Virus record (IMG/VR): IMGVR_UViG_3300045988_115450 | Coordinates: 1 to 64,000 of that record | From: a virus | Direction: 5' to 3' (one strand) | DNA: 64,000 nt | Shown here: positions 10,282 through 53,100 of the stretch, in pieces | Layout: each line of letters starts with the position of its first letter | Position numbering within the stretch: the first letter of the stretch is position 1 | Translations under genes and position numbers: made by a program | The notes under the pieces: generated by a model | What the model saw: the letters and a program-made list of their open reading frames with translations, nothing else | Database searches by the model: none | What the model was told of the DNA's origin: nothing

Positions 10282-10815
10282 CTAGTCTGTAATCCATTTA
10301 ACCCATACACCATCTTGCTTCTTCCAAACAATCTGGTTACTGCTGCCTCGGAACTGGAGGGTGACATCTCGCTTGTCGATCTCAAACCTCCCGTCTACTA
10401 CCACATCACAGTTTCCGATCACATCTTTTCTCAAGAGGTGGCTTTCGTTTGCCTTCCTAGTACAGATGCTTAGGTCTGGATTAAGGATTTCTTCCATAGT
10501 GTATCCCGTATAAATCCAAATTGTCTTTTCCGGGATCTCGTTTTTTAACTCTCTCACTAGCTTCAAAACGTCTCGCAAATTTTCATACGCAAGCGGCTCG
10601 CCTCCGAGGATTGAAACTCTCTTTATGTAAGGTTTGTTCGCAAGCGTTAAGAGTTTATCTTTTATCTCAGCCGTGAATTCTTTACCCCCGCTGAACGCCC
10701 ACGCCCCAGGGTTAAAGCACCCTGGGCAGTGGAACGAACATCCTTGCACAAAGACGGAGACACCTGCGCATTTGCCGTTACATACTTCAAACGGAACAAT
10801 CTGCGCATACCTCAT
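10282..10815 (-). CDS. nrdG: Anaerobic ribonucleotide reductase activating protein (radical SAM)
   Basis: Cys-rich N-terminus CNGKCAGVSVFVQGCSFHCPGCFN. Directly downstream of nrdD. Confidence 0.85.
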   Translation of the reverse strand: MRYAQIVPFEVCNGKCAGVSVFVQGCSFHCPGCFNPGAWAFSGGKEFTAEIKDKLLTLANKPYIKRVSILGGEPLAYENLRDVLKLVRELKNEIPEKTIWIYTGYTMEEILNPDLSICTRKANESHLLRKDVIGNCDVVVDGRFEIDKRDVTLQFRGSSNQIVWKKQDGVWVKWITD

Positions 10816-39956: not shown

Positions 39957-40184
39957 TTAATTGCTTACCAATCTAACCTTACTTTTTCTTACATAGATTC
40001 CGACATCACCTTCTCCGTCAATCGAATCAAGCGTAACATAAATTTTCTTATCATACTTTTTTGGTGTTACCTCTACTGTACCTTCCGTAACAACTCTACA
40101 ATTATAATCATGAATCCAAAGTTCCGATGTATCACCAGAAATATAAACTCTATCTCCTGCCTTGAACATATTTAAATCCTTCAC
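39957..40184 (-). CDS. Hypothetical protein
   Basis: 75-aa ORF. Confidence 0.4.
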   Translation of the reverse strand: MKDLNMFKAGDRVYISGDTSELWIHDYNCRVVTEGTVEVTPKKYDKKIYVTLDSIDGEGDVGIYVRKSKVRLVSN

Positions 40185-41410: not shown

Positions 41411-42577
41411 TTAGTTTTTGAGATCCTTCTTCATCGTGGCTTCAATATCAAAGCCAAACTTCTGACTATAGCGAGTGATAACTCCATCAATACTTCCTCT
41501 GTTAACCATTCGATAGTAGCTCATAAGACCGAGCACATATTGCAGTTGCTCAAGAGGCCAATAAGTTCCGCTCTTTCTGTCCTTCGCGTAATTGAAAAGC
41601 ATCGCCTCGAAGTTGCGCTTCTTCTTATACCCAATCGTGATCTGGTTGTCCTTGTTGATCATCACACCGAGTACCCAATTCTTATGATACGAGGGGCCGT
41701 AATGAGTTTTCTCATCTTTGATGAGATAACTGGCCCCGAAAAGTCTAAACAGATTTTCAATCTTTCTGATAATGAAGCTCTTATCAAACTCAATACCACA
41801 GCTGATGTTCATATCATCAGCATATCTGGTATACGCGAACCTTCTACCCTTTTCATCAGGGTTGTTTTCCGGGTTCTGCAGGCTACGCAGAAACTTACTG
41901 AACTCAAAATCAAACGGAATCATAATCAGATTGGTCAGCATCGGGCTGATCGGCGTTCCCATAGGTAGACCTCCATCCAGGAAGCAAAGCGACAGAGCTT
42001 TTCTAAGCTCTTCTCTCCCGCTTTTGCACTCCATAATGAGACAGAACGGGTAAATCATAGACAGCGCGTTCCATACAAACTCCGGAGTGGTATTAGGAAA
42101 GAAACCGCTGATGTCAGTCTTTAAATACCACTTGCTCTTATTCCACTGATGGACTTTTGCGGCGTCTACACTACTTCTGTTTTTGACATAAGCGTATGCA
42201 GCGGCATGGCTGCTCGCATAAAACTCAGATTCTAACAGCAGTTTTAGCTCTCGCAGACAATTCATCAGTTCGTCGTCCGGCGCGTTAATCTCTCTCATGC
42301 CGCCGCTCTTTTTCGGGATAAAAAACTTATGGTAATGTGTATGAAGATCGCTTTCAAGCAGTTCCTGATGCTTTTTGTTAAATGCTCTCAGTAGTTCAAT
42401 CTTTTTCCCCGTGTCAAACCCTGCCAGGATTCTCTCGGGCAGTCTCTCATATGCAACTGTTCTAGTATATAGAGATCTCGATTCCCTCACATGTTTATCT
42501 TGAAGCAGCGCAGACATAATATCCTCTAAAGAAATCTGCTTATACGGCTCTGTAATTCTTGCTGTTACATAAATCAT
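41411..42577 (-). CDS. Reverse transcriptase, retron-type
   Basis: KKSGGMREINAP (motifs 1-2), YAYVKNRS, LKTDISGFFPN, GLPMGTPISPMLTN, YTRYADDMNIS (YADD), then NWVLGVMINKDNQITIG (retron VTG-like region) and LGLMSYYRMVN. Confidence 0.85.
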   Translation of the reverse strand: MIYVTARITEPYKQISLEDIMSALLQDKHVRESRSLYTRTVAYERLPERILAGFDTGKKIELLRAFNKKHQELLESDLHTHYHKFFIPKKSGGMREINAPDDELMNCLRELKLLLESEFYASSHAAAYAYVKNRSSVDAAKVHQWNKSKWYLKTDISGFFPNTTPEFVWNALSMIYPFCLIMECKSGREELRKALSLCFLDGGLPMGTPISPMLTNLIMIPFDFEFSKFLRSLQNPENNPDEKGRRFAYTRYADDMNISCGIEFDKSFIIRKIENLFRLFGASYLIKDEKTHYGPSYHKNWVLGVMINKDNQITIGYKKKRNFEAMLFNYAKDRKSGTYWPLEQLQYVLGLMSYYRMVNRGSIDGVITRYSQKFGFDIEATMKKDLKN

Positions 42578-42594
42578 ATTATTCTCCTTGCTTT

Positions 42595-42935
42595 TATCTG
42601 AAACTATATATGGATTTGGATGTCAGTACGAGATGCTCATCGCGGAGCTTGTCGTCGTCTGAGACGGTGAAATCCCTGACTTGGCGTTTATTGTTTGCCG
42701 GATACCCCTGCTGGTGGCGGATGTTGACCCTGTCGAACGAATATCCTTCTGGTTTTTCCTGTTGTTCGGGCGCTGCTTCTCATCAGAGAAGATGCCACCG
42801 GGGTGTTAAGCCTTCTTGGAGGGCACCAAGCATTGGTCTGCTATCGCACGCAGCGGGGTTCCTCTTTCGGACGATGTGCCACTCTTCCGTTCCGGTAAGA
42901 GTTTCTATTTTTTTAAATAGAAAGTGCTTTCAGAT
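42595..42935 (-). ncRNA. Structured RNA copy A (about 341 nt) directly 5' of the RT; retron msr/msd-like candidate
   Basis: 9-bp closing helix (42595-42603 / 42927-42935). On the minus strand this is followed by G, hairpin 42901-42923 and hairpin 42881-42900. Homologous to 48537-48883. The only ORF here is a junk-like antisense one. Confidence 0.65.
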
Positions 42936-43037
42936 ATTTAGATTGAATTGGTTGTTAGCAGGCGTGCCATTCCCCTGCATCTCTTTAGCCATTAAGGCGC
43001 GTGGCGACACGAAATTTCCACCTCAAACAACCAATAT

Positions 43038-43706
43038 TTAATATGCTTCCATAGTAAAATCAAAGGCGTCGATCAAAACTATCTTCTTGATCGAACGCCC
43101 ATTCACAAAATTCATGAAGTTTGCTACTGCACAAGAGCAAATCATCCGCACAGAAGGAGCGATACTAAGCTCCAGGTTACATGCAGATCGAGGAGTTTCA
43201 GCCAGAGCTTCCTCTTGAGTAAACTGCATGGAGTTAATCAGATTTTCAACCATCGCACTAGAACTCCAGTCAGCCGCAAAGTGTTGCGCGTCCGTCAGCC
43301 GAAGTCTGGTATCAAACACAGCTTTGATATACGGGTTTCTAGCATTTTCTTCGCAAATTTTTCTGCGGAGATCAATGTTGTCCACCATAAGGAAGACATA
43401 GCCGGACAGACGCTGGTTGGTATACCCCTCCTGAACTACTTCAATACCATTTGCATCAGGATTGATACTCAACATCATATCTTTCACGGCTTCAGCTTTA
43501 TTTCTACCGATGTCGCTATCATTGAACATCTGATTCGCGATATTGTGCGACTCAACCTTGTCAAAATCGTACAGAGTGACCTTCTCAAGCCCAGCTCTTG
43601 CCAACAATTCGGCTACAGTGGAACCGGACGCACCACAACCGATGATATGTACTCTTTCTTTAACCTTCGTGGGATTAAAGAACTCAATACTCTTCGATAA
43701 ATTCAT
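43038..43706 (-). CDS. Minimal ThiF/MoeB/E1-like adenylyltransferase
   Basis: HIIGCGASGSTVAELLARAGLEKVTLYDFDKVESHNIANQMF..DIGRNKAEA (Rossmann GxGxxG plus the E1 DxD..N..RQ-like region). Confidence 0.8.
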   Translation of the reverse strand: MNLSKSIEFFNPTKVKERVHIIGCGASGSTVAELLARAGLEKVTLYDFDKVESHNIANQMFNDSDIGRNKAEAVKDMMLSINPDANGIEVVQEGYTNQRLSGYVFLMVDNIDLRRKICEENARNPYIKAVFDTRLRLTDAQHFAADWSSSAMVENLINSMQFTQEEALAETPRSACNLELSIAPSVRMICSCAVANFMNFVNGRSIKKIVLIDAFDFTMEAY

Positions 43707-43718
43707 CTTTATACCTCC

Positions 43719-43997
43719 TTATAGCATTAAACAATTCAAAAATACATCACTATCGACTTTACTTTCAATCGGCTCAAACATCCAAGAAGCCCAAGCAACA
43801 AATCTTAATTTGCCTCTTTCTTCAATGCAAATACGTTCAACTTGAATGCCGTTAATCAAGGATGTCAATGAGCGCACTGTTATGATCTTACCGCAATAGC
43901 GCGTTTTATCCCCTTCAAATATCCCGTGATCATTTTTAGAAAGAATCGCCGTTCCACTACCTGTATCTACGGAAAACAGATCAGGGTCAGACATCAT
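43719..43997 (-). CDS. Tail-family paralog P1 (divergent), C-terminus ...FLNCLML
   Basis: Shares the C-terminal tail with P2-P5. A 16-aa N-terminal remnant ORF (MKLEDMYVGQKVRVRS) lies just upstream at 44004-44054. Confidence 0.5.
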   Translation of the reverse strand: MMSDPDLFSVDTGSGTAILSKNDHGIFEGDKTRYCGKIITVRSLTSLINGIQVERICIEERGKLRFVAWASWMFEPIESKVDSDVFLNCLML

Positions 43998-44061
43998 GTC
44001 TTCCTAACTCCTCACCCTGACCTTCTGCCCAACATACATATCTTCAAGTTTCATACGTCAC

Positions 44062-44394
44062 CTACAACAACAAACAGTTCATAAAAACCTGCTCATCAAT
44101 AGATTGCTTTAACCGCAACACACTTTTATAGAAAGACATCTCTTTTTTGCTAACCCTTACCCTGTACCAACCGCCAAGTTCATACTCAACGATCTCGCCG
44201 CCGTCTCTTATAAACTCTCTGAGGCAAGGATCGCCCTCCGCGTACATCACATCGTCGGCGTATATAAATCTTTCGTTTGTGATGATGTCTACGCTCTGCG
44301 ACACAGCCCCATTCGGAAATACCGCCCGTAAGTTATCATTAAATTCATCCCACGTTTTTGGAATAAACTCAACCCGCTGCCCAGGTCTAAACAT
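44062..44394 (-). CDS. Tail-family paralog P2, C-terminus ...FMNCLLL
   Basis: MFRPGQRVEF..WDEF...GGWYRV...FYKSVL...DEQVFMNCLLL. Confidence 0.6.
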   Translation of the reverse strand: MFRPGQRVEFIPKTWDEFNDNLRAVFPNGAVSQSVDIITNERFIYADDVMYAEGDPCLREFIRDGGEIVEYELGGWYRVRVSKKEMSFYKSVLRLKQSIDEQVFMNCLLL

Positions 44395-44403
44395 TATATC
44401 ACC

Positions 44404-44745
44404 TCACAATAATAAGCAATTTATGAACAATTTTTCATCAATTGACCTCATGTCTTCTTTCAGACACAACACGCTTTCGTGAAATTTCAGTTTTACTCCA
44501 TTTATATTCACCATATACCAACCAGTAGCATAGTACTTGATAATCTCACCTCCATTTATTAGAAGCTCGTTAAACCAAGAATCGCCTTCCCCATAAAGCA
44601 CCCCTGCAACCAATATCATTTCTCTATGAGTAGTTGAGAATTCATCTAATATCATATCTCTCGCAAACAACTCCATTAAAGCATCCCGAAATTCATCCCA
44701 TGACTTTGGGGCAAGCGTAACTTTCTGTCCAAGTTCAAACATCAT
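44404..44745 (-). CDS. Tail-family paralog P3, C-terminus ...FINCLLL
   Basis: MMFELGQKVTL..WDEF...TGWYMV...FHESVL...DEKLFINCLLL. Confidence 0.6.
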   Translation of the reverse strand: MMFELGQKVTLAPKSWDEFRDALMELFARDMILDEFSTTHREMILVAGVLYGEGDSWFNELLINGGEIIKYYATGWYMVNINGVKLKFHESVLCLKEDMRSIDEKLFINCLLL

Positions 44746-44752
44746 ATTACCT

Positions 44753-45082
44753 CTATAGCAGCAAACAATTCATAAGTACCTCTTCGTCAACATATGCTTC
44801 TTCCATCGACCGTAGCATCGTCTCATAGAACCACGCTCTTTCTCCGCCAAAGTCTACAATGTACCAACCACACTCGAAGTCTAATTCAATCACGCCACTC
44901 ATCCTGCGTAACTTATAAAAATCGGGAGCGCTATATCCTGCTGCACTAGCTGCAAGATACCCAGTGGTATCACAGCTCGTAAACCTTTTTGCGCTGCGAG
45001 GAAGATGCTTTAGGTAAGCGCTGCAAAACTCATCCCAGCTCCTCAATGCTATCCTGACTCGTTGTCCGATCTCGAACATCAT
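44753..45082 (-). CDS. Tail-family paralog P4, C-terminus ...LMNCLLL
   Basis: Start reassigned to MMFEIGQRVRI, preceded by RBS GAGGAG. CGWYIV...FYETML...DEEVLMNCLLL. Confidence 0.6.
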   Translation of the reverse strand: MMFEIGQRVRIALRSWDEFCSAYLKHLPRSAKRFTSCDTTGYLAASAAGYSAPDFYKLRRMSGVIELDFECGWYIVDFGGERAWFYETMLRSMEEAYVDEEVLMNCLLL

Positions 45083-45092
45083 ATCAACTCCT

Positions 45093-45437
45093 CTATAACA
45101 GCAGGCAATCCATAAGTGTCTTTTCGTCAACACTTTTTTCTTTTAATTGACACGGCGCTGTTTCGCCCGGCCCACCCACCAAACACTCATCTCTTACTTC
45201 GCCAAAGTCAACGCGCCAAATCCAATAGTCATCCGGTTCCAGATAAATTGTCGCTCCGTATTTATCTGGAGCATTAAAATTGTCACCTTCAATCATTTCG
45301 CATCCATCATCGACGCATTCTTGAAACACTGAATGAAACCTACGTTTCACGTGTTCCACCGCACTCTCCAAATTCCAATAAACACCGGATAAATCAATAC
45401 CCTGGTCTGTTTCTGTTATCACACAATATACCTTCAT
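45093..45437 (-). CDS. Tail-family paralog P5 (divergent body), C-terminus ...LMDCLLL
   Basis: Start reassigned to MKVYCVI, preceded by RBS AAAGGAGAAG. The tail is VDEKTLMDCLLL. Confidence 0.55.
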   Translation of the reverse strand: MKVYCVITETDQGIDLSGVYWNLESAVEHVKRRFHSVFQECVDDGCEMIEGDNFNAPDKYGATIYLEPDDYWIWRVDFGEVRDECLVGGPGETAPCQLKEKSVDEKTLMDCLLL

Positions 45438-45611
45438 ACCGGTCTTCTCCTTTCTTATGTACCTCTGAACAGCTAACCAGCTGTTTAAGTTCAAAAGTTT
45501 TCTGCTCTGGGAGTAGGAAAACTTTTGAAGCGACACAGCCATTTGTTACTCCCTCGTTCCGACAAGAGTGATATGTAATTTAACATATCTGTACAGGCAC
45601 ATATGTTTTTT

Positions 45612-46298
45612 TTACTTAATTAACATCTTACCGTCACGCCAATCGGGCCGCTCATCAATAATTTTATCTGCGTCCTCCATGAATTCTTCAAGCTCAACCG
45701 CGGCGTTCATAATCCACTCGATGCCATCCTGTACATCACGCACGTCCACCTTCTCAAACCGGTCAATGTTATCGAAAAACCATCTGCACAAATCATATAC
45801 AGCGGGGTTCCATCGTTCCACTGCGAGTTCCACATTGTCGCTTTCGTATAGGATGCCTTCTCTAACATCATAAACCTGTGAAGATATGTAGCCTTTCTTA
45901 TTGAAAATCTGAAAGACGTAGAAATCATCAACGTCTGTCAGCAAATCTGCTCTATACTTTATATCCGTAGAAGATGGACTGACACCCATGTTCACATGAG
46001 AATGCCCGTACAACCGAACCTTATTGAATATCTCCGTGTTAAGAGAATCCTGCCAGTTCACATAGTCCGCATCTTCAGGTTCGGTGCTTGCCGACGTGAC
46101 CTTCTGAGGGAATACCAAGACGTCCTCCACGATAAACTCAGCTGGATTTTCCAACCTTCTTACAACTCCGTGCCATCCAACCTCCAGATTCCTATTCATA
46201 ACAAGCAAACACGTCTTCATCCATGCCTTCTTACTGTATACGATTTTGCACGGATTTGTCGCGGCCAACAAATCCGTTGCATTAGTTGCCTTATTCAT
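45612..46298 (-). CDS. JAB/MPN (JAMM) metallopeptidase
   Basis: Exact JAMM signature HxHx7SxxD (GHSHVNMGVSPSSTD), with an upstream Glu (LEVGWHG). Confidence 0.8.
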   Translation of the reverse strand: MNKATNATDLLAATNPCKIVYSKKAWMKTCLLVMNRNLEVGWHGVVRRLENPAEFIVEDVLVFPQKVTSASTEPEDADYVNWQDSLNTEIFNKVRLYGHSHVNMGVSPSSTDIKYRADLLTDVDDFYVFQIFNKKGYISSQVYDVREGILYESDNVELAVERWNPAVYDLCRWFFDNIDRFEKVDVRDVQDGIEWIMNAAVELEEFMEDADKIIDERPDWRDGKMLIK

Positions 46299-47706
46299 TG
46301 CTCTTATTCTCCTTTATCCATTTAATTGCGTCGATGTAATTAACTACTCGCCCATCCGGCAACTCCAATACTACAGCGCCTTTTCTCAACAACTCTTCAA
46401 GGAATGATCTCAATACGACAGTATCACTAAGATTCAGATTCCCGCTTTCGGCGCACGTCGTGTCTACCGTATAAACGTAGTCACATTTGTCGCAAGATTT
46501 CTCTAGCGCCTGTTGCCAGCTCCCCATGCAACCATATTTATCAAGGTGTGTGTTGGGGAGATAGCTGTTGTATTCACAGCCATACCCATATGCCTTGATG
46601 GGTAGTACCATTCCTCCGAAAGAAAGTCTCCATGCGGAACACATTCTTACTTTGATATTAGAGTCAATGAAAATCCCTGTCATTAACTTTTTAGTATCAC
46701 TTTCTGTCAGGCCCACATACGAAGACCGCGTATAAAAAATCGACGACCGATTGTTGATGTACTCTCTCGCAATCTCTGGATCAAACAGTGTCATATAACC
46801 AGTTACAACATATACGATATTCCCATCTTTGTCACCGCTCTCAACGGACACATTTTTGTTCGACAAAAAATAATCCATTAACTCGTTCTTGCTTTCAACA
46901 TTACTGTTGTCAATTGCTTCCACCAACAAAGACCAACCTTCGTATTCTCTATACCAATCTCTCAAATCGGACATCAATTTATTGATCTGACTTCTTGCAC
47001 TCTCCATCTTCTTTGCGTATCTTTCCCTCTGTACGTTCCTTAGCTTTCCCTCATAGCCATAAAGGTAATATCTCTTTTTAGCTGAGGCCACGTCCACAGC
47101 AGCGGCAACCATATCGTTCATCGCTTTACAGATTACACTCATGCCGGAGTCTTCTTTAGACAGAATCTTAATAAACTTTGACTCCGCTTCAGTCCTGTCT
47201 TTAATGTACCATGGGCAGAATACATTGAAAAGACACACTAGGTAATGCCACGAGCCATAGTTATCCACGTTGGTAAGGACAACCGTACTCTTCCTCTCTT
47301 CATTACTGAAAATTCTCAGTATGATACCGAGTCGTTCTTTCATTAGATTCAGCTCTCTTGCCGTCTTCTCTTTCCAACTGCTCGCACATTTCATATTACT
47401 GACTAAAGTTTCTACGGCCTTAACCTTATCACACACGCAAAATGTAATCGTGTTGTCTTGAGAAGTTACCTCCGAAAAACGCTCTTTGTCTTTTATCCAC
47501 GTAATCCAATCAGCACAATTAGGATCTACCACTCTAACCATGATACGCACGTCCGCCGGAACTCTTGGCTTCAAAAACAACCGAGCCATTGCCAACGCAA
47601 AGTCATCGCCTTTGAACGTCCCGTCACCAGCAATATTAGAAAACTCAGACTCCAGCTCTGGGGCCAGCACTAAAACTTCACTGCGTTTCAAACAATTTGA
47701 AAACAT
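46291..47706 (-). CDS. Large (471-aa) protein of unknown function in the E1/JAB cassette
   Basis: Start reassigned to MFSNCLKRSEV, preceded by RBS AAAGGAGAAG. Cys-rich C-terminal region. Confidence 0.55.
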   Translation of the reverse strand: MFSNCLKRSEVLVLAPELESEFSNIAGDGTFKGDDFALAMARLFLKPRVPADVRIMVRVVDPNCADWITWIKDKERFSEVTSQDNTITFCVCDKVKAVETLVSNMKCASSWKEKTARELNLMKERLGIILRIFSNEERKSTVVLTNVDNYGSWHYLVCLFNVFCPWYIKDRTEAESKFIKILSKEDSGMSVICKAMNDMVAAAVDVASAKKRYYLYGYEGKLRNVQRERYAKKMESARSQINKLMSDLRDWYREYEGWSLLVEAIDNSNVESKNELMDYFLSNKNVSVESGDKDGNIVYVVTGYMTLFDPEIAREYINNRSSIFYTRSSYVGLTESDTKKLMTGIFIDSNIKVRMCSAWRLSFGGMVLPIKAYGYGCEYNSYLPNTHLDKYGCMGSWQQALEKSCDKCDYVYTVDTTCAESGNLNLSDTVVLRSFLEELLRKGAVVLELPDGRVVNYIDAIKWIKENKSNE

Positions 47707-47786
47707 ATATCTTCTCCTTTCTTTATGAACTCTTGGCAGGCCATCCGACGTAACCGAATGCCCTCCCAGCAACTCACTGTGTTATG

Positions 47787-47815
47787 TACGAGGCCGGACA
47801 ATGTCCGGCCTCGTA
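47787..47815. other. 29-nt perfect palindrome (14-bp GC-rich arms) without a U-tract
   Basis: TACGAGGCCGGACA-A-TGTCCGGCCTCGTA, between the Ubl-like gene and the 471-aa gene. Confidence 0.55.
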
Positions 47816-47832
47816 GATTGTGCTAACTCAAA

Positions 47833-48072
47833 TCAGATCGCGTTACCTTGCGCCTTAACAATAGCACTCAGAGTACAAATACCAGCGGCACCAAGTTCGG
47901 CAAAAGTGCAATCCATATCATCAGGCGTCAGAATCGTGCCGGAAAGAGAATTGACGCTACGGCTGCACTCAATTCCGATCTTCTCGAACAGAGAACGAGG
48001 GGTCTCTACATGTTCATCTACGGCCTGGCTATCAAAACGGCGGGTGGTACTTCTAACATTCACAATAATCAT
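47833..48072 (-). CDS. Small beta-grasp/ubiquitin-like (ThiS/MoaD-like) candidate, C-terminus ...VKAQG-NAI
   Basis: 79 aa. MIIVNVR..., a mid helix, then GTILTPDDMDCTFAELGAAGICTLSAIVKAQGNAI. This is a ThiS/MoaD-like layout with a Gly 3 residues from the end. Confidence 0.45.
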   Translation of the reverse strand: MIIVNVRSTTRRFDSQAVDEHVETPRSLFEKIGIECSRSVNSLSGTILTPDDMDCTFAELGAAGICTLSAIVKAQGNAI

Positions 48073-48113
48073 AATATACTTCCTTTCTGTTATTACATCT
48101 ATGCTTATTTGTT

Positions 48114-48503
48114 TTAGCCAGCTACTACGATCTTGGAACTGACCCGTGCCATCATAACGTCGATCTCTTCCAGCGCTTCGCGCACCTGGGCTTCAATCTT
48201 TTCTACCTTCTCGATAACAGAAGCATATCTCTCGGCAACAACCTCACGTACGGAACGGTCAGCTTCGGTAATAAGACTCACAGTTACGACCGCACGACCA
48301 GAGCCATCACAAGACTCAGCCTCATAGATAATACCGGTCGGTGCTACTACGCCTCTCTCGCCAGCGAGAGTGTAAAACAGTGCGTTGCCATCTTCGTCCA
48401 GCAGTTGCACAGACTTAGGCCGGTACAGAGCTGCGCGATTGATTTCTTCAAGAGTGAAAGCACTCTTGAGTGTTACTGCGTTACCACACACAATAATTTC
48501 CAT
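48114..48503 (-). CDS. 129-aa protein ending ...KIVVAG; first gene downstream of RNA copy B
   Basis: ORF preceded by RBS AAAGGAGAAG. C-terminal Gly. Confidence 0.5.
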   Translation of the reverse strand: MEIIVCGNAVTLKSAFTLEEINRAALYRPKSVQLLDEDGNALFYTLAGERGVVAPTGIIYEAESCDGSGRAVVTVSLITEADRSVREVVAERYASVIEKVEKIEAQVREALEEIDVMMARVSSKIVVAG

Positions 48504-48944: not shown

Positions 48945-49799
48945 TTAGTTTTCCTGCTGTCCACTCCAAACAACCAGACAATCAGGATTGGGGACACCTC
49001 TGGTTTCCTTACCATCTAGCCATCTAGCCAGTACATAAGAGGTCGTCAAGAACACACGGTGGCGGTAATGCTTGCACCGGCCATCAATAGCAGAATCCTT
49101 AATCCAATCTCTCAAGCGGACAATCTGCCTATCCAAACTAGACTCAGCATAACCAGTCTGAAGAACATTCCAGAAATATTCGAGCCTAACATCGCTCGCC
49201 CCGGCTTCTTTCGCCAGATACATGGCAGCTGTGATCGGAGCCGTGCCAAGCTTTCTCTGTCTCACCTTCAAGAAACTATTAACCCAGGAGAATTCAGCGA
49301 TGTGCTTCGAAATCATGTCCGCTCTCTTAGCTTCATTCTCCAAGTGCCTCGCACTAAATTCATTCAGCACCATGCAGATTGCAACCGAGCGCTTGTAAGA
49401 AGAAATCTTTCCTCTGTTTCCGCCCTCGGCCATACACAAAGCGTCGGCTTCACTTCTCGCCCTACCCCGGTCAATGTACGGACTGCGTTCCATATTGAAC
49501 AGGAAGAACATCTTTACTGTCTTACCGCAGCGCTTCACCGCTTCGAGCCGGTGATGCCCGTCAATAAGAACACCAGCCTTATCAAACATAATAAAGCCGG
49601 TCGGAGTATTTTCATCCCATGTGCCATTCATCATATGGGACTTGTACTTATTCACAGTGCTCTTACTGATCGGACGATTGCCGCCGGACATAGCCAACAA
49701 ACCCGTCGCCATTTCCGGAGACACGTAAGCATACGCCAACTGTCCACCGTTCCGTTCTTCTAGCAACAAGTTGCTCAACAATTCTTCATAAGCTGTCAT
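48945..49799 (-). CDS. ParB/sulfiredoxin-like nuclease-domain protein
   Basis: Start reassigned to MTAYEEL, preceded by RBS GGAGG; the listed N-terminal extension would overlap a tRNA. Motif LIDGHHRL. Confidence 0.6.
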   Translation of the reverse strand: MTAYEELLSNLLLEERNGGQLAYAYVSPEMATGLLAMSGGNRPISKSTVNKYKSHMMNGTWDENTPTGFIMFDKAGVLIDGHHRLEAVKRCGKTVKMFFLFNMERSPYIDRGRARSEADALCMAEGGNRGKISSYKRSVAICMVLNEFSARHLENEAKRADMISKHIAEFSWVNSFLKVRQRKLGTAPITAAMYLAKEAGASDVRLEYFWNVLQTGYAESSLDRQIVRLRDWIKDSAIDGRCKHYRHRVFLTTSYVLARWLDGKETRGVPNPDCLVVWSGQQEN

Positions 49800-49825
49800 T
49801 TGTATGTACCTCCTAAAAATTTTGC

Positions 49826-49902
49826 TGGTGGTTCCTGCCCGGCTCGAACGGGCGACCATCCAGTTATGAGCTGGACGCGCTAACCAACTGCGCTAAGGAA
49901 CC
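49826..49902 (-). tRNA. tRNA-Met/Ile2 (anticodon CAT), CCA encoded
   Basis: Hand-folded cloverleaf: GGTTCCT/AGGAACC acceptor, TCCAG-CTCATAA-CTGGA, GCCCG-TTCGAGC-CGGGC. Confidence 0.85.
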
Positions 49903-49978
49903 AGGTACGTTTAAAGCCGCTGAATTTATCAGCGGCTTTAAACTGTTAATGAAAGCAAGTGTCCGTATAAAACGAACG

Positions 49979-50053
49979 TGGCAGCGCCGGACTGAGATCG
50001 AACAGTCTTCCACGGAGTCAAAGTCCGTTGCATTACCGTTATGCTACGGCGCT
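49979..50053 (-). tRNA. tRNA-Gln (TTG), CCA encoded
   Basis: AGCGCCG/CGGCGCT acceptor and ACGGA-CTTTGAC-TCCGT anticodon arm. Confidence 0.8.
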
Positions 50054-50164
50054 ATATAAATCAAGCAGAGCAGAGCAGAGTTTAAAGCCATTCCAGGCTA
50101 TGTAAAGAAAGGAGGTGGTTTATCAACAATAACAGGTAGGAGAATCATTTTCTGTTGCTTGATA

Positions 50165-50239
50165 TGGGGTAGGCGACGAGTGCCGATCTCGCGTTTCCGG
50201 TTTGGAAGACCGGTGTTCTAGCCGTTGAACTACGCCTAC
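50165..50239 (-). tRNA. tRNA-Gly (TCC), CCA encoded, atypical T-loop
   Basis: GTAGGCG/CGCCTAC acceptor and CCGGT-CTTCCAA-ACCGG. The T-loop reads ATCGGCA instead of TTCRANY. Confidence 0.7.
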
Positions 50240-50269
50240 ATTTTTGCGGTTCCGCAAACCGCATTTTTT

Positions 50270-50899
50270 TTAATTCATATATAAATCATAATAACTTTGT
50301 TTTCTTCTTGGTTTCAAATCTGGATTTTTTAAACGCCTTTTGATGAACTCAACTGTATTATCCAGCCCATAGTTCCTGACGTATGTATTGATCCTGTTTG
50401 CTCCCAAACCTAAAGTTTTAGCCCAGTCCTTCCCAGTATGTATCGTTCCGTCAACATCAATAAGCGAAGTTGTAGACTTGTATTTCGAATTATCTGCCAA
50501 TGTTACCCATCTGCAATTATCAGGAGAATAATCCCCGTCCCAATCAATTCTATCAATAGTCAAACCATCATCGTACCCGTTAGTTAATGACCAACTCTCA
50601 AATAATTCTGGATTGCGCATCCAATCATCACAAACCTTAACACCCTTAGCGCCATACCATCTGTAGCTCTTATTACTCTTATCATAGCACCTAGCTTTCA
50701 TATCGCTAAAAATTCTCCGGAGCTTGTCGTCACTCCATGAAGCATCATAATTTATATAACCCCCGCTTCTTCCGATATGTCTACAAGCTTTCGCCTGCTC
50801 AATATGCCTTTTCTGTTTGTTCGTTTCAAACCCACACTCAGCACATCTCACATGGTATAATCTATGCCCGTCCCTATGCCTGAAATCACACTCATACAA
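50270..50899 (-). CDS. Free-standing HNH homing endonuclease inside the tRNA cluster
   Basis: DRIDWDGDYSPDNCRWVT..DN and a C-terminal HTH-like tail. Same family as the two intron HNH genes. Confidence 0.8.
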   Translation of the reverse strand: MYECDFRHRDGHRLYHVRCAECGFETNKQKRHIEQAKACRHIGRSGGYINYDASWSDDKLRRIFSDMKARCYDKSNKSYRWYGAKGVKVCDDWMRNPELFESWSLTNGYDDGLTIDRIDWDGDYSPDNCRWVTLADNSKYKSTTSLIDVDGTIHTGKDWAKTLGLGANRINTYVRNYGLDNTVEFIKRRLKNPDLKPRRKQSYYDLYMN

Positions 50900-51047
50900 G
50901 ACATCGAAAATACCTATCCTAGTACCAACAATATTCTCTTTTTCCAGAATATCACCATCTTTCTGCGTGTTGCTAAATAATAATCCGATGAGAGTGCTGC
51001 CCTCTCGCCTGCGTTGTTCACTGTACTACTGTTATACTAATCGGATG

Positions 51048-51128
51048 TACGGGCGACAAGATTTGAACTTGCAAGCCTTACGGCACCGGGGCCTAAACCC
51101 GGCGTGTATACCGTTCCACCACGCCCGC
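51048..51128 (-). tRNA. tRNA-Leu (TAG), long variable arm
   Basis: GCGGGCG/CGCCCGT acceptor and CCGGG-TTTAGGC-CCCGG. Confidence 0.75.
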
Positions 51129-51210
51129 ATGGCACCACTAAGTCATGGTCGGCTGCGCATTTATCCTTTTTTGAATCGTGGTAGATGATTTTGCTTCGTA
51201 CAACCACGCA

Positions 51211-51285
51211 TGGACTGAGTGGAGAATTTTGAAATCTCGACCTCTGGTTCCCAAAACCAGCGTTCTGCCTCTGAACTACACCCAG
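51211..51285 (-). tRNA. tRNA-Pro (TGG), CCA encoded
   Basis: CTGGGTG/CACTCAG acceptor and CTGGT-TTTGGGA-ACCAG. Confidence 0.75.
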
Positions 51286-51288
51286 ATA

Positions 51289-51363
51289 TGGAGGCCGATG
51301 CGAGTTCGAACTCAGCGTCTGTGGGTTACAAAGCCACTGTTTTACCACTTAAACTAATCGGCC
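51289..51363 (-). tRNA. tRNA-Thr (TGT), CCA encoded
   Basis: GGCCGAT/ATCGGCC acceptor. Anticodon loop TTTGTAA, with a C:C at the loop-closing pair. Confidence 0.7.
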
Positions 51364-51513
51364 ACGCACCCCGTTTTGCGGGGTGGCTATGTAAGGGAAT
51401 CAAAAAGGGGAACTCCTGTCTCTTCCAGGATGCCAACACACTACTACGGACTGCCAGAGGCAAACCGCCACTTTTCAGGTGTCATAGTCCGCAAACTATG
51501 GGCTTTTCTTTAG

Positions 51514-51595
51514 TGCGGGATAAGAGACTTGAACTCTTACGTCTATCGACATCGAGACTTAAACACGAGGTGTCTACCGATTCCACCAATCCCGC
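51514..51595 (-). tRNA. tRNA-Leu (TAA), long variable arm
   Basis: GCGGGAT/ATCCCGC acceptor and anticodon loop TTTAAGT. Confidence 0.75.
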
Positions 51596-51948
51596 ATATT
51601 GAACTTGCTACAACCCAGCCTGGTGGTTGACCCGTGGGCGTTGATAACTGACCCAAACCATTAACCCAGGATTTTGTAAAACTTTAACCGTTAACCTTTG
51701 ATTCTTGAACTTTAATCTTCTGAAGATCTTTGAGCCTTGAATTTTGAAATTTTAACTTTGAAGTTTGAGCTTTACAGCAACATTTCTTCTATAAGAAATT
51801 AGATTAACAGTCCAATCTTTTTGTAAGCGCAAAATTTCAAGTTTTGCTTTGTAGTTGGCACATATTTGTTCATTTTTACATCGAACCAAGTGCCGTCAGC
51901 ACGATGGGTTACCGTTTTAGGTTTTCGGGTTGCAGCAAGTTGCTTATT

Positions 51949-52602
51949 TTAGTATTCTACGGTGATTGTAGTGGTCGCATTGGACACAGATAGCTGAGAA
52001 TCTACATCCGCAGTAAACGTGTCAATCCAATCGCTCAAAACCTTGATTTCATTACCAATGTCAAGCGGATCAACGAGTTCATACGTATTGTTGGCAATAT
52101 ACTCTTCTCTCAACCGCTTAACGACCTCAGAATCCTTGGTTGTCTTGGCCTCTTTAGGCTGGCACTGGAGGAAATTCATGATATACTGTTCAGCTTTCGC
52201 TTCAATCCACTCGCCTTCATGTTTGGAAACCTCAGCACGGGCTCTTTCGTACTGCCGGACCATTACATCAAGCAAATCTTTCTTAGCCATGATTCCATGG
52301 CTTTTCATTTCGATGGCTTCGGCTACGGTGTAAGGTTCGCCGCCAATTACCACCGGGGTTTTGGCATTGGAGAGCACAACTGCTCTCTTAATAGCCGTCC
52401 GACGAGCAATCAAGTCCGTAACAGACTGATAATCAGACTTCATATCCTTCTTGAGGGTTTCGACCAGCACACCGCCGATCTTTTTGTCGCTCACTTTCTT
52501 ACTGGCAACGAAGGTTTTACCAGAAGTAGCATTGAAAATTCTAGCGTCCAAAATTTTCAGCTCTGCAAGAGCTTTATGGACGGTCATAGTTTCTTTGTTC
52601 AT
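51949..52602 (-). CDS. Hypothetical 217-aa protein embedded in the tRNA region
   Basis: ORF preceded by RBS GAGGAAC. No motif recognised. Confidence 0.5.
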   Translation of the reverse strand: MNKETMTVHKALAELKILDARIFNATSGKTFVASKKVSDKKIGGVLVETLKKDMKSDYQSVTDLIARRTAIKRAVVLSNAKTPVVIGGEPYTVAEAIEMKSHGIMAKKDLLDVMVRQYERARAEVSKHEGEWIEAKAEQYIMNFLQCQPKEAKTTKDSEVVKRLREEYIANNTYELVDPLDIGNEIKVLSDWIDTFTADVDSQLSVSNATTTITVEY

Positions 52603-52653
52603 ATTAGTTCCTCACTTTCTTATTTATGGAATTAGATTTTTATCGTGGTATCG

Positions 52654-52744
52654 TGGTCTCCCTGGGTGAATTCGAATCACCATATACCTTATGAGGGCCT
52701 TCCAATTATAAGTTGGAAGCTATAACCAATTTAGCTACAGGGAG
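52654..52744 (-). tRNA. Type II-like tRNA (19-nt variable region) with anticodon TAT, CCA encoded
   Basis: CTCCCTG/CAGGGAG acceptor, GCTA/TAGC D stem, TCCAA-CTTATAA-TTGGA, variable AGGCCCTCATAAGGTATAT, GGTGA-TTCGAAT-TCACC, discriminator A. Confidence 0.7.
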
Positions 52745-52933
52745 ATATTTGTTCAGCAACCACAACCGCCCTATCAATCAGTCGGCCTAACCAAAAGATA
52801 GGGCTGGATTGTGTTGCCCAACCGTGCCTGAGAGCTTTCTTGCCTAGCCTGTACTTAACCAGGTGTCTGCAATCAATGTTTAGGTTGCTGGTTTTGACCC
52901 TCGCTCTAGAACCAGTTAACTAGAGCGATTGAG

Positions 52934-53019
52934 AGCTACTAGACGGAATTGCACCGCCTTGAAGTCATAAGTGAGGCGCGAGAGGAGTTACGCCCACCTC
53001 TTCACCTGCTTGGAGTAGC
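52934..53019 (-). other. tRNA-like element / degenerate tRNA (no canonical anticodon arm)
   Basis: Acceptor-like GCTACT/AGTAGC and T-arm-like GGCGG-TGCAATT-CCGTC. The central stem AGAGG/CCTCT carries an 11-nt loop. Confidence 0.3.
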
Positions 53020-53024
53020 ATATG

Positions 53025-53100
53025 TGGCACCAGCACTAAGATTCGAACTTAGAACTACGGTTTTGGAGACCGCCGTTTTTCCACTTAAAACTATGCTGGT
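53025..53100 (-). tRNA. tRNA-Trp (CCA), CCA encoded
   Basis: ACCAGCA/TGCTGGT acceptor and GCGGT-CTCCAAA-ACCGT. Confidence 0.8.

Follow-up and report, generated by a model that had tools for sequence, protein, structure and literature searches.

A shared C-terminal tail on dissimilar proteins encoded between JAB and E1-like genes of a phage cassette

We analysed a 64,000-nucleotide stretch of viral DNA (positions 1 to 64,000 of the IMG/VR record IMGVR_UViG_3300045988_115450; hereafter, the window), which is part of a large phage genome with nearly all of its genes on the minus strand, and focus here on five adjacent minus-strand open reading frames (ORFs) at 43719-45437. This array, whose genes we call P1 to P5, lies between the gene for a JAB/JAMM metallopeptidase (45612-46298, minus strand, 228 aa), transcriptionally upstream, and the gene for an E1-like enzyme of the ThiF family (43038-43706, minus strand, 222 aa), transcriptionally downstream, and its products end in one short tail. 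We find that this tail is under selection at the protein level, is carried by differing protein bodies, always terminates at the same place and is confined to the slot between the JAB and E1 genes, and that other tails occur in the slots of other lineages. Our preferred reading, to which we give a probability of about 0.5, is that the tail may be a lineage-specific C-terminal recognition tag that is read by a component of the surrounding gene cassette.

Five neighbouring genes with one tail

In the order of transcription, the array consists of P5 (type C; 45093-45437, 114 aa, ending LMDCLLL), P4 (type A; 44753-45082, 109 aa, LMNCLLL), P3 (type A; 44404-44745, 113 aa or, from its second ATG, 112 aa, FINCLLL), P2 (type A; 44062-44394, 110 aa, FMNCLLL) and P1 (type B; 43719-44054 at full length, with a restart ORF at 43719-43997 of 92 aa, FLNCLML). 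The codons of the five tails, with their stops, occupy 45093-45131, 44753-44791, 44404-44442, 44062-44100 and 43719-43757, respectively, and encode about 12 residues with the consensus (V/I)-D-(E)-x-x-hydrophobic-hydrophobic-(N/S/D)-C-L-(L/M)-L-COOH. Among the 447 ORFs of 40 aa or longer in the window, only the five array genes, all of them neighbours, end in CL[LM]L, against 0.015 expected from amino-acid composition, so that chance is negligible; no ORF outside the array carries a CLLL tail within the window. The ORF list and this composition test bear out the original prediction, which was made from the bare sequence and described five tandem ORFs with a shared tail and a Cys always four residues from the C-terminus. 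Each intergenic gap in the array measures 7-12 nt and holds a GGAG-type ribosome-binding site right after the stop codon, also as predicted, with the next start 7-12 nt on.

Conservation of the tail was assessed independently of the tail itself. A profile of P2-P4 with the tails removed, searched against 5.8 billion proteins, returned 15 homologs, and all 15, although found by body alone, end in [NSD]CLLL. An exhaustive search with the same profile across 1.84 billion cluster representatives gave four real clusters and P0021, a truncated P4-like copy, and the array family therefore seems confined to one phage clade; the other matches were repeat proteins, among them one SH3b-repeat protein.

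Within the 14 sequences of this clade (the window and 13 further loci), the pattern C-[LM]-[LMS]-L yields 49 tails, 44 of which end intact ORFs, with 34 distinct DNA sequences. The DNA varies freely between TGT and TGC, between TTG, TTA, CTG and CTA, and between the stops TAG, TGA and TAA, yet the peptide is maintained: all 49 tails have the Cys, four residues from the C-terminus, the stop falls at the same fixed place, and the forms seen are CLLL, CLML and CLSL. The pooled Nei-Gojobori ratio of nonsynonymous to synonymous divergence (dN/dS), from compared pairs that are not independent, is 0.14 over the last 12 codons and 0.26 over the bodies, and synonymous divergence (pS) is 0.42 in the tails versus 0.24 in the bodies. 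Together, the dN/dS values and the shuffling of synonymous codons indicate that these are real coding genes of which the tail is the most constrained part. A degenerate DNA scan of IMG/VR, looking for the tail in other phages, found it in three contigs of about 106-109 kb, all from this clade. In one of them (L093), both scan coordinates map to the ends of P5 and P2 array genes, and in the other two, there are as many scan matches as array tails conforming to the pattern.

Differing bodies behind the tail

P2-P4 form one family, and alignment upholds the body motifs that they had been proposed to have in common; P2 orthologs are 62-91% identical, and P0002 is an ortholog of P4. In hhalign comparisons, P5 matches the type A profile over its last 48 residues only, and a full-length P1-type protein matches it over the 13-residue tail only, so that the description of the array as five paralogs stands for P2-P4 and not for the array as a whole. 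Because the alignments of P5 and P1-type proteins to P2-P4 are limited to the C-terminal part, the tail appears to be a portable module, and as judged by profile comparison, no fewer than three types of body, with a partial relationship or none, carry it. A second type B variant, ending FLSCLLL, occurs in relatives. These apparently non-homologous bodies, together with the synonymous codon variation and the lower dN/dS of the tail, agree with the earlier suggestion that selection acts on the tail itself.

The AlphaFold2 (AF2) model of P2 has a predicted local distance difference test score (pLDDT) of 90, with residues 1-95 forming a globular alpha/beta domain, a short helix at 101-108 and a mean pLDDT of 58 in the last block of 10 residues. 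As modelled, the tail resembles a typical short linear motif at the end of a flexible linker. Foldseek searches of this model against the PDB and BFVD gave no match at E <= 0.001; the weak matches are SH3-, Tudor- or Agenet-like barrels, and a ubiquitin-like beta-grasp domain is absent among the 50 listed PDB matches. We rejected the idea that the array proteins are themselves ubiquitin-like modifiers, given a confident P2 model without a beta-grasp match and an end in CLLL and not Gly-Gly. The idea that they are MccA-like precursors of ribosomally synthesized and post-translationally modified peptides was also rejected, given confident folds of about 100 aa and bodies under purifying selection.

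No family in Pfam, NCBIfam, PHROGs or PADLOC matches P1-P4, and the N-terminus of P5 has a weak DUF7336 match (E=0.009, below the cut-off). The array locus has no megablast match among GenBank phages, and a scan for promoters and terminators did no better on it than on shuffled sequence.

Turnover of the array

Relatives hold two to five array copies, with type C always first and type B always last, and truncated or split copies are found in L010, L011 and L014. One copy, P0004, is a chimera, 75% identical to P3 and 38% to P2 over residues 1-52, and 78% identical to P2 and 38% to P3 over residues 53-92, which points to recombination between array copies. Copy number, truncation and this chimera favour the gene birth and death that had been proposed for the array, in contrast to one item of that proposal, a decayed sixth copy at 44004-44054. 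The 16-aa peptide encoded there (MKLEDMYVGQKVRVRS) is the N-terminus of P1 itself, severed by a TGG-to-TAG mutation.

P1 orthologs in L001, L002, L005, L006, L010 and L013 read MKLEDMYVGQKVRVRSWEDMMSDPDL... unbroken, with Trp (TGG) where P1 has an in-frame TAG (44004-44006). This codon splits P1 into the 16-aa peptide and the 92-aa restart ORF, which is preceded by an internal GAGGAG; P1 is therefore either N-terminally truncated, with a restart at this site, or decaying. TAG is taken to be a working stop here because it terminates P2, P4 and P5, and an amber-suppressor tRNA is lacking among the nine tRNA genes of the window; an amber-recoding genetic code was rejected on these grounds.

In several relatives, the last array gene, next to E1, is frameshifted a few codons before the tail (L001, at 10606-10685, L002, L004, L005, L014 and L094), and in L009 (7900-7974), it is independently frameshifted ahead of the tail. 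The changes are an extra C (GTACTTTTTG versus GTATTTTTG) and an expansion of A4 to A5. The frameshifted gene runs on to ...IRRYKDEFIEEY and overlaps the start of E1, and the +1 frame still holds an intact tail with its stop. Ribosomes shifting by +1 at CUU-U or AAA-U would again produce ...LLNCLML or ...KLFLSCLML. Possible explanations are loss of the tail, programmed frameshifting and, in L009, a homopolymer error.

Between the JAB stop and the P5 start lies a spacer of 174 nt (45438-45611, minus strand) that is conserved in eight loci. RNAalifold on the alignment of these loci predicts a multi-stem RNA with 40 pairs, eight of them with compensatory double changes; no Rfam family matches, and the element may be a regulatory leader for the array.

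A variable slot with other tails in other lineages

The genes on either side of the array belong to a cassette (41411-48503, minus strand) with the order 129-aa protein, 79-aa protein, 471-aa protein, JAB, slot, E1, a spacer of about 400 nt and a retron-like reverse transcriptase (RT), which is common in phage-like contigs of about 100 kb from gut, rumen and termite metagenomes and in Clostridia metagenome-assembled genomes (MAGs). Contigs that encode homologs of the array proteins and the 471-aa protein all have this gene order. A JAB profile found more than 432 relatives in metagenomes, 80 loci of which were kept, and found nothing in a scan of genome contigs; a DNA pattern for the JAMM motif added 86 loci, mostly from gut Clostridia MAGs (for example, Oscillospiraceae, Lachnospiraceae and Christensenellaceae) and often on contigs of about 100 kb. 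ORFs of the related loci, labelled by BLAST, show the same cassette throughout.

JAB and E1 occur together in 126 distinct loci; they abut or overlap in 90 of these, a single gene intervenes in 21 and a larger insert is present in 15, eight of which belong to the CLLL clade. The single slot gene usually encodes a very acidic protein of about 100-200 aa (27-39% Asp+Glu) that begins MTRxEF. Acidic slot proteins, in L012 (3381-3941) and about 20 other loci, combine an N-terminal MTRxEF...W.D...L domain with a poly-acidic linker and end in a short hydrophobic motif (for example, FEQLFA, ILSILW or EISILF). Mimicry of DNA is one possible role for them, and another is that they form a further class of tagged client.

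The clearest counterpart of the array is found in L128, a contig from an Oscillospiraceae MAG in which four slot genes lie in tandem. The encoded bodies are dissimilar (local alignment scores of 21-41), and all four proteins end in ...[SED][ED]FI (TETIDISEFI, NLLDLEEFI, IINIDDFI and LANIEEFI), with differing synonymous codons and stops and a ribosome-binding site after each tail. In L038, an acidic protein and an unrelated P1-like protein of 88 aa end in EDFISILNVAV and QDFESILNR. Neither the L128 nor the L038 tails contain Cys. By comparison of these sequences, the presence of one tail on different bodies within one slot thus seems to recur, with other tail sequences, in other lineages, and the fixed termination of both the CLLL-type and the FI tails argues that recognition involves the free C-terminus. 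This recurrence, in the variable slot of an otherwise conserved cassette, favours the functional link of the tails to E1 and JAB that had been suggested from gene position. Six multi-gene slots lie outside the clade: tail sharing is clear in L128 and L038, arguable in L104 and L117, and not seen in L035 and L053.

Two further observations concern slot-type proteins. A 385-aa slot protein in L104 (1540-2697) ends ...DLSDIEEFVAQS, resembling the EEFI tails of L128, and in size and N-terminal style, it is a candidate DNA polymerase III beta sliding clamp. In the window, a 75-aa ORF outside the slot (39957-40184, minus strand; MKDLNMFKAGDRVYISG...) has an N-terminus in the GQ(R/K)V style of the slot proteins and is tail-less.

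The cassette around the slot

The placement of the array between a JAB peptidase and an E1-like enzyme, another element of the original prediction, was confirmed. Pfam ThiF recognises the E1 with 85 bits (5e-24; cut-off, 28 bits), and its NCBIfam ThiF and 6A-MBL cap2_3 matches are all below their cut-offs. Its N-terminal domain matches Cap2-type models, NF058523 at 1.1e-19 (below the cut-off) and PADLOC E1-E2 at 3e-17, and its best PDB sequence match is MccB (4.5e-10, in the Rossmann part only). It is a minimal adenylation domain without an E2 domain, and a Cys within 'SAC' is kept in all lineages inspected (the window, L012, L038, L104, L117 and L128). The window JAB itself has no Pfam match, and its homolog in L012 matches Prok-JAB below the cut-off (E=0.0099). 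It has an exact JAMM motif (HSHVNMGVSPSSTD and an upstream Glu; E...HxHx7Sx2D), the residues E39, H99, H101, S109 and D112 of which are invariant in six homologs.

The 471-aa protein (B471; 46291-47706, minus strand) has a C-terminal domain (residues 330-471) with invariant His387, Cys393 and Gly395, arranged as His387-x5-Cys393-x-Gly395 within PNPH...C(L/M)G and followed by ...AIEQCIAS..LNFxD. Judged by its motif, this domain looks like a thiol active site, superficially like the HPN...Cys motif of E2 enzymes. The protein has no match in Pfam, NCBIfam, PADLOC or PDB sequences, and an E2-like assignment is unsupported, profiles of the whole protein and of its C-terminal domain having given coiled-coil noise and no E2 against PDB sequences; no E2 (UBC) component was found in the cassette. 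The opening residues of this protein (MFSNCLK) had been thought to echo the tail, but its homologs begin MFSSRLE, MFGRRIT or MFSEILR, which removes the likeness.

A ubiquitin-like (Ubl) candidate is encoded at 47833-48072 (minus strand, 79 aa). With a profile of 26 homologs, eight of the top ten PDB matches are ubiquitin-like domains or small archaeal modifiers, with ubiquilin-1 as the best (E=0.0021) and SAMP2, PF1061 and BAG-1 among the others; the family also has weak matches to ThiS, DUF348 and DUF2604. Its AF2 model is poor (pLDDT 54) and unfit for a fold search, and the family C-terminus reads ...VVKADNA, ending in KADNA and not GG. From these profile matches, the protein is probably a ubiquitin-like beta-grasp protein. 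The neighbouring 129-aa protein (E129; 48114-48503, minus strand) yielded nothing but coiled-coil noise when its profile was compared with PDB sequences. In some lineages, it is fused to the Ubl candidate (L045, 2185-2811; L046, 2689-3309; L076, 2171-2800), with the junction ...KA(E/V)NAA.... By analogy with ubiquitin fusion precursors, these fusions would be plausible substrates of the cassette JAB.

The last gene of the cassette encodes the retron-like RT (41411-42577, minus strand, 388 aa), with matches to Pfam RVT_1 (2.5e-13) and PADLOC RT_II-A (5e-41) and a best NCBIfam model, retron St85, at 1e-47 and 162.9 bits against a cut-off of 235. An RT follows E1 in most loci that extend far enough. 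A diversity-generating retroelement acting on the array was rejected, the tails being invariant and the RT retron-like. The spacer upstream of the window RT measures 460 nt, and its sole Rfam match is a skipping-rope RNA (RF02924; 42951-43031, minus strand, directly after E1; 50.3 bits against a gathering threshold of 36.7, E=6.7e-10). The skipping-rope motif has been tied to particular neighbouring proteins (Weinberg et al. 2017, PMC5737381). Among the related loci, it is present only in L008 and L013, which are the closest, and is missing from L001, L002, L006, L010 and 15 distant loci; absent from most relatives, it was rejected as a part of the cassette and seems to be a recent insertion.

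Upstream of the cassette are a ParB-like gene (48945-49859) and, overlapping the start of its ORF, the nine tRNA genes (Met, Gln, Gly, two Leu, Pro, Thr, Ile and Trp; 49826-53100). This tRNA cluster lies just upstream of the cassette, with more tRNAs in related loci (L001, L006, L008, L010 and L013), and in syntenic loci, the cassette is bordered by genes for ArdA and DpnD/PcfM; together, these features suggest an early or anti-defence region. Elsewhere, the window encodes a primase-helicase, a DNA polymerase, an NAD-dependent ligase, an RNA ligase, RtcB, NrdD and integrases, and near-identical contigs in IMG/VR and GenBank metagenomes are 106-109 kb long.

Discussion

We propose that the space between the JAB and E1 genes is a hypervariable 'cargo slot', occupied here by the five genes, and that a partner encoded by the cassette would recognise otherwise different slot proteins through their tail. 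If the reading partner co-evolves with the tail, this would explain why tails are lineage-specific and yet shared within a slot. The likeliest readers would be the two enzymes, E1 and JAB, since members of both families bind the C-terminal ends of proteins; the Ubl candidate or the 471-aa protein could also serve. The tagged proteins might be clients, trimmed or conjugated as Cap2 and Cap3 treat CD-NTases, or adaptors that use their variable bodies to deliver targets to the Ubl machinery. That the reader belongs to the cassette, which component it is and what becomes of the tagged proteins are all inferred.

Several observations weigh against this proposal. The CLLL clade is narrow, and many of its tails are non-independent observations. 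Most relatives of the cassette have an empty slot, so that slot proteins are accessory and not core to the machine. Tail sharing is not universal, as the slots of L035 and L053, and arguably those of L104 and L117, illustrate, and tail loss is seemingly tolerated in the several relatives with a frameshifted last gene. Finally, the cassette has its own Ubl candidate, and its E1 need not use the tails as substrates.

The last point bears on a more specific alternative, which we regard as unlikely: that the tails are direct E1 substrates, their terminal Leu carboxylate being adenylated, maybe after trimming by JAB, and the slot proteins then being joined to targets by their C-termini, on the model of type II CBASS. 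The position of the array genes between E1 and JAB fits, as do the invariant length after the Cys and the equally fixed alternative tail of L128. So does the enzyme itself, with its conserved 'SAC' Cys, its good scores on Cap2-type models and, as its best PDB sequence match, a protein that adenylates peptide C-termini. Known E1-type enzymes, however, act on small C-terminal residues (Gly, Ala or, in MccA, Asn), whereas these tails end in bulky Leu-Leu-Leu or Phe-Ile; the Ubl candidate would be a more conventional client, the E1 is minimal and lacks an E2 domain, and 90 of the 126 cassettes have no slot protein at all.

The tail could instead be a host-directed signal unrelated to the cassette, such as a protease degron, a membrane-binding hydrophobic helix or a CaaX-like lipidation site, although this, too, appears improbable. 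The tail is hydrophobic and sits on a flexible linker, and other host-directed genes, such as ArdA in the syntenic loci, lie nearby. CLLL, CLML and CLSL fit the eukaryotic CaaX box, in which a Cys exactly four residues from the C-terminus is followed by two aliphatic residues, here with a final Leu, and the Cys is invariant in all 49 tails. This is a bacteriophage, however, with the related cassettes mostly on contigs binned to gut Clostridia, and to our knowledge, bacteria have no CaaX prenyltransferases. Within the 64-kb window, moreover, the tail is on slot genes only, and the tails of sister lineages (EEFI, DFxSILN) are acidic and Cys-free and are nonetheless common to the proteins of one slot. 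The likeness to CaaX is probably a coincidence of pattern.

Regulation of the JAB peptidase is, in our view, less probable again. JAB enzymes hold extended C-terminal tails in their active-site cleft, and the tail could act there as a pseudo-substrate or as a 'cysteine switch', its thiol ligating the catalytic zinc and so tuning deconjugation. An invariant Cys at a fixed distance from the C-terminus would suit this role, and the array begins directly downstream of JAB, behind the conserved leader, but the L128 and L038 tails contain no Cys.

It is very unlikely that the tail is functionless, either a duplication relic under gene conversion or a translated DNA or RNA signal (a recombination boundary or translational coupling): although the paralogs do recombine (P0004), the higher pS of the tails suggests their exchange between copies, and the next ribosome-binding site directly follows every tail, these sites lie after the stops and not inside tail codons, the peptide is kept at a dN/dS of 0.14 while Cys, Leu and stop codons vary, the bodies are not detectably homologous, and L128 and L038 show the same pattern with different sequences.

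If a cassette component does read the tag, it would offer an immediate experimental handle on the role of the machine and a natural targeting peptide that is short, portable and orthogonal, and it would explain why fast-evolving orphan genes pile up at this position. A bolder possibility, which we hold tentatively and consider doubtful, is that the Ubl candidate, E1, JAB, the 471-aa Cys/His protein and the retron-like RT constitute a self-contained, programmable tagging machine in phages that infect gut Clostridia. A short, lineage-specific C-terminal 'address code' (CLLL here, EEFI or SILN elsewhere) would enrol interchangeable small proteins either as cargo, conjugated by way of the C-terminus, or as E3-like adaptors with fast-evolving bodies that choose host targets, for example, defence proteins.

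Comparison with known systems

Bacterial ubiquitin-like systems, such as Cap2/Cap3 of the cyclic-oligonucleotide-based anti-phage signalling system (CBASS) and Bil, have recently become central to phage-defence biology, and all characterised examples that we know of are encoded by the host. The cassette described here is phage-encoded and widespread (at least 126 distinct loci, with more than 432 JAB relatives in metagenomes), and it couples a Ubl candidate, an E1 and a JAB to a retron-like RT and to slot occupants that share a lineage-specific C-terminal tag. Our literature searches found no description of this cassette, which, like the tail and the array protein family, appears to be undescribed.

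One close parallel is type II CBASS, in which Cap2, an E1-E2 protein, conjugates the C-terminus of the CD-NTase and Cap3, a JAB, reverses the reaction. There, as in the window, an E1-type enzyme and a JAB are found in one operon, and the CBASS pair acts on the C-terminal tail of a folded, non-ubiquitin protein encoded next door. Unlike CBASS, the present cassette has a minimal E1 of 222 aa without an E2 module and neither a CD-NTase nor an effector; it is phage-encoded and has, in addition, a separate Ubl candidate, a retron-like RT and several putative clients with bulky hydrophobic C-termini.

Mobile operons that join Ubl, E1, in some cases E2, and JAB genes with lineage-specific accessory proteins, the latter proposed to pick targets, are described by Iyer, Burroughs and Aravind (2006, PMC1779556). 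The present cassette resembles these as a mobile cluster of a beta-grasp candidate, an E1-like enzyme, a JAB and lineage-specific accessory proteins. It differs from the operon types that a term search of that paper found in its RT, its 471-aa and 129-aa proteins and its tail-tagged slot, and its Ubl candidate ends ...KADNA and not Gly-Gly.

The match of the window E1 to MccB invites a comparison with peptide-modifying enzymes. MccB of microcin C biosynthesis, which acts on MccA, and PaaA are E1-like enzymes, and each adenylates a ribosomal peptide at its C-terminal residue. Their short peptides are held by an N-terminal clamp; the array proteins, by contrast, are folded domains of about 100 aa, and the E1 here has no clamp.

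With the PRTRC system (ParB-related, ThiF-related cassette; TIGR03734-03742), the cassette shares a small ThiF-family E1, a Ubl-sized protein, a larger unknown protein, residence on a mobile element and a ParB-like gene upstream, and PRTRC also includes a JAB-like protein. Membership was nevertheless rejected, the E1 scoring 35.4 bits on PRTRC_ThiF against a cut-off of 144.75, and PRTRC A, B, C, E and F match none of the window proteins or of 80 homologous cassette proteins.

Finally, the poxvirus ankyrin/PRANC (F-box-like) proteins combine variable bodies with a constant C-terminal docking motif. They resemble the array in their tandem genes with fast turnover, their diverse bodies and their shared short C-terminal motif, which in PRANC plugs into a ubiquitin-type machine. 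PRANC proteins have no sequence or fold relationship to the array proteins and use the SCF ligase of the host, whereas the presumed partner here is encoded by the phage itself. Were the tagging machine outlined above to prove real, the slot proteins would be a virus-encoded analogue of the substrate-receptor families of eukaryotic ubiquitin ligases.

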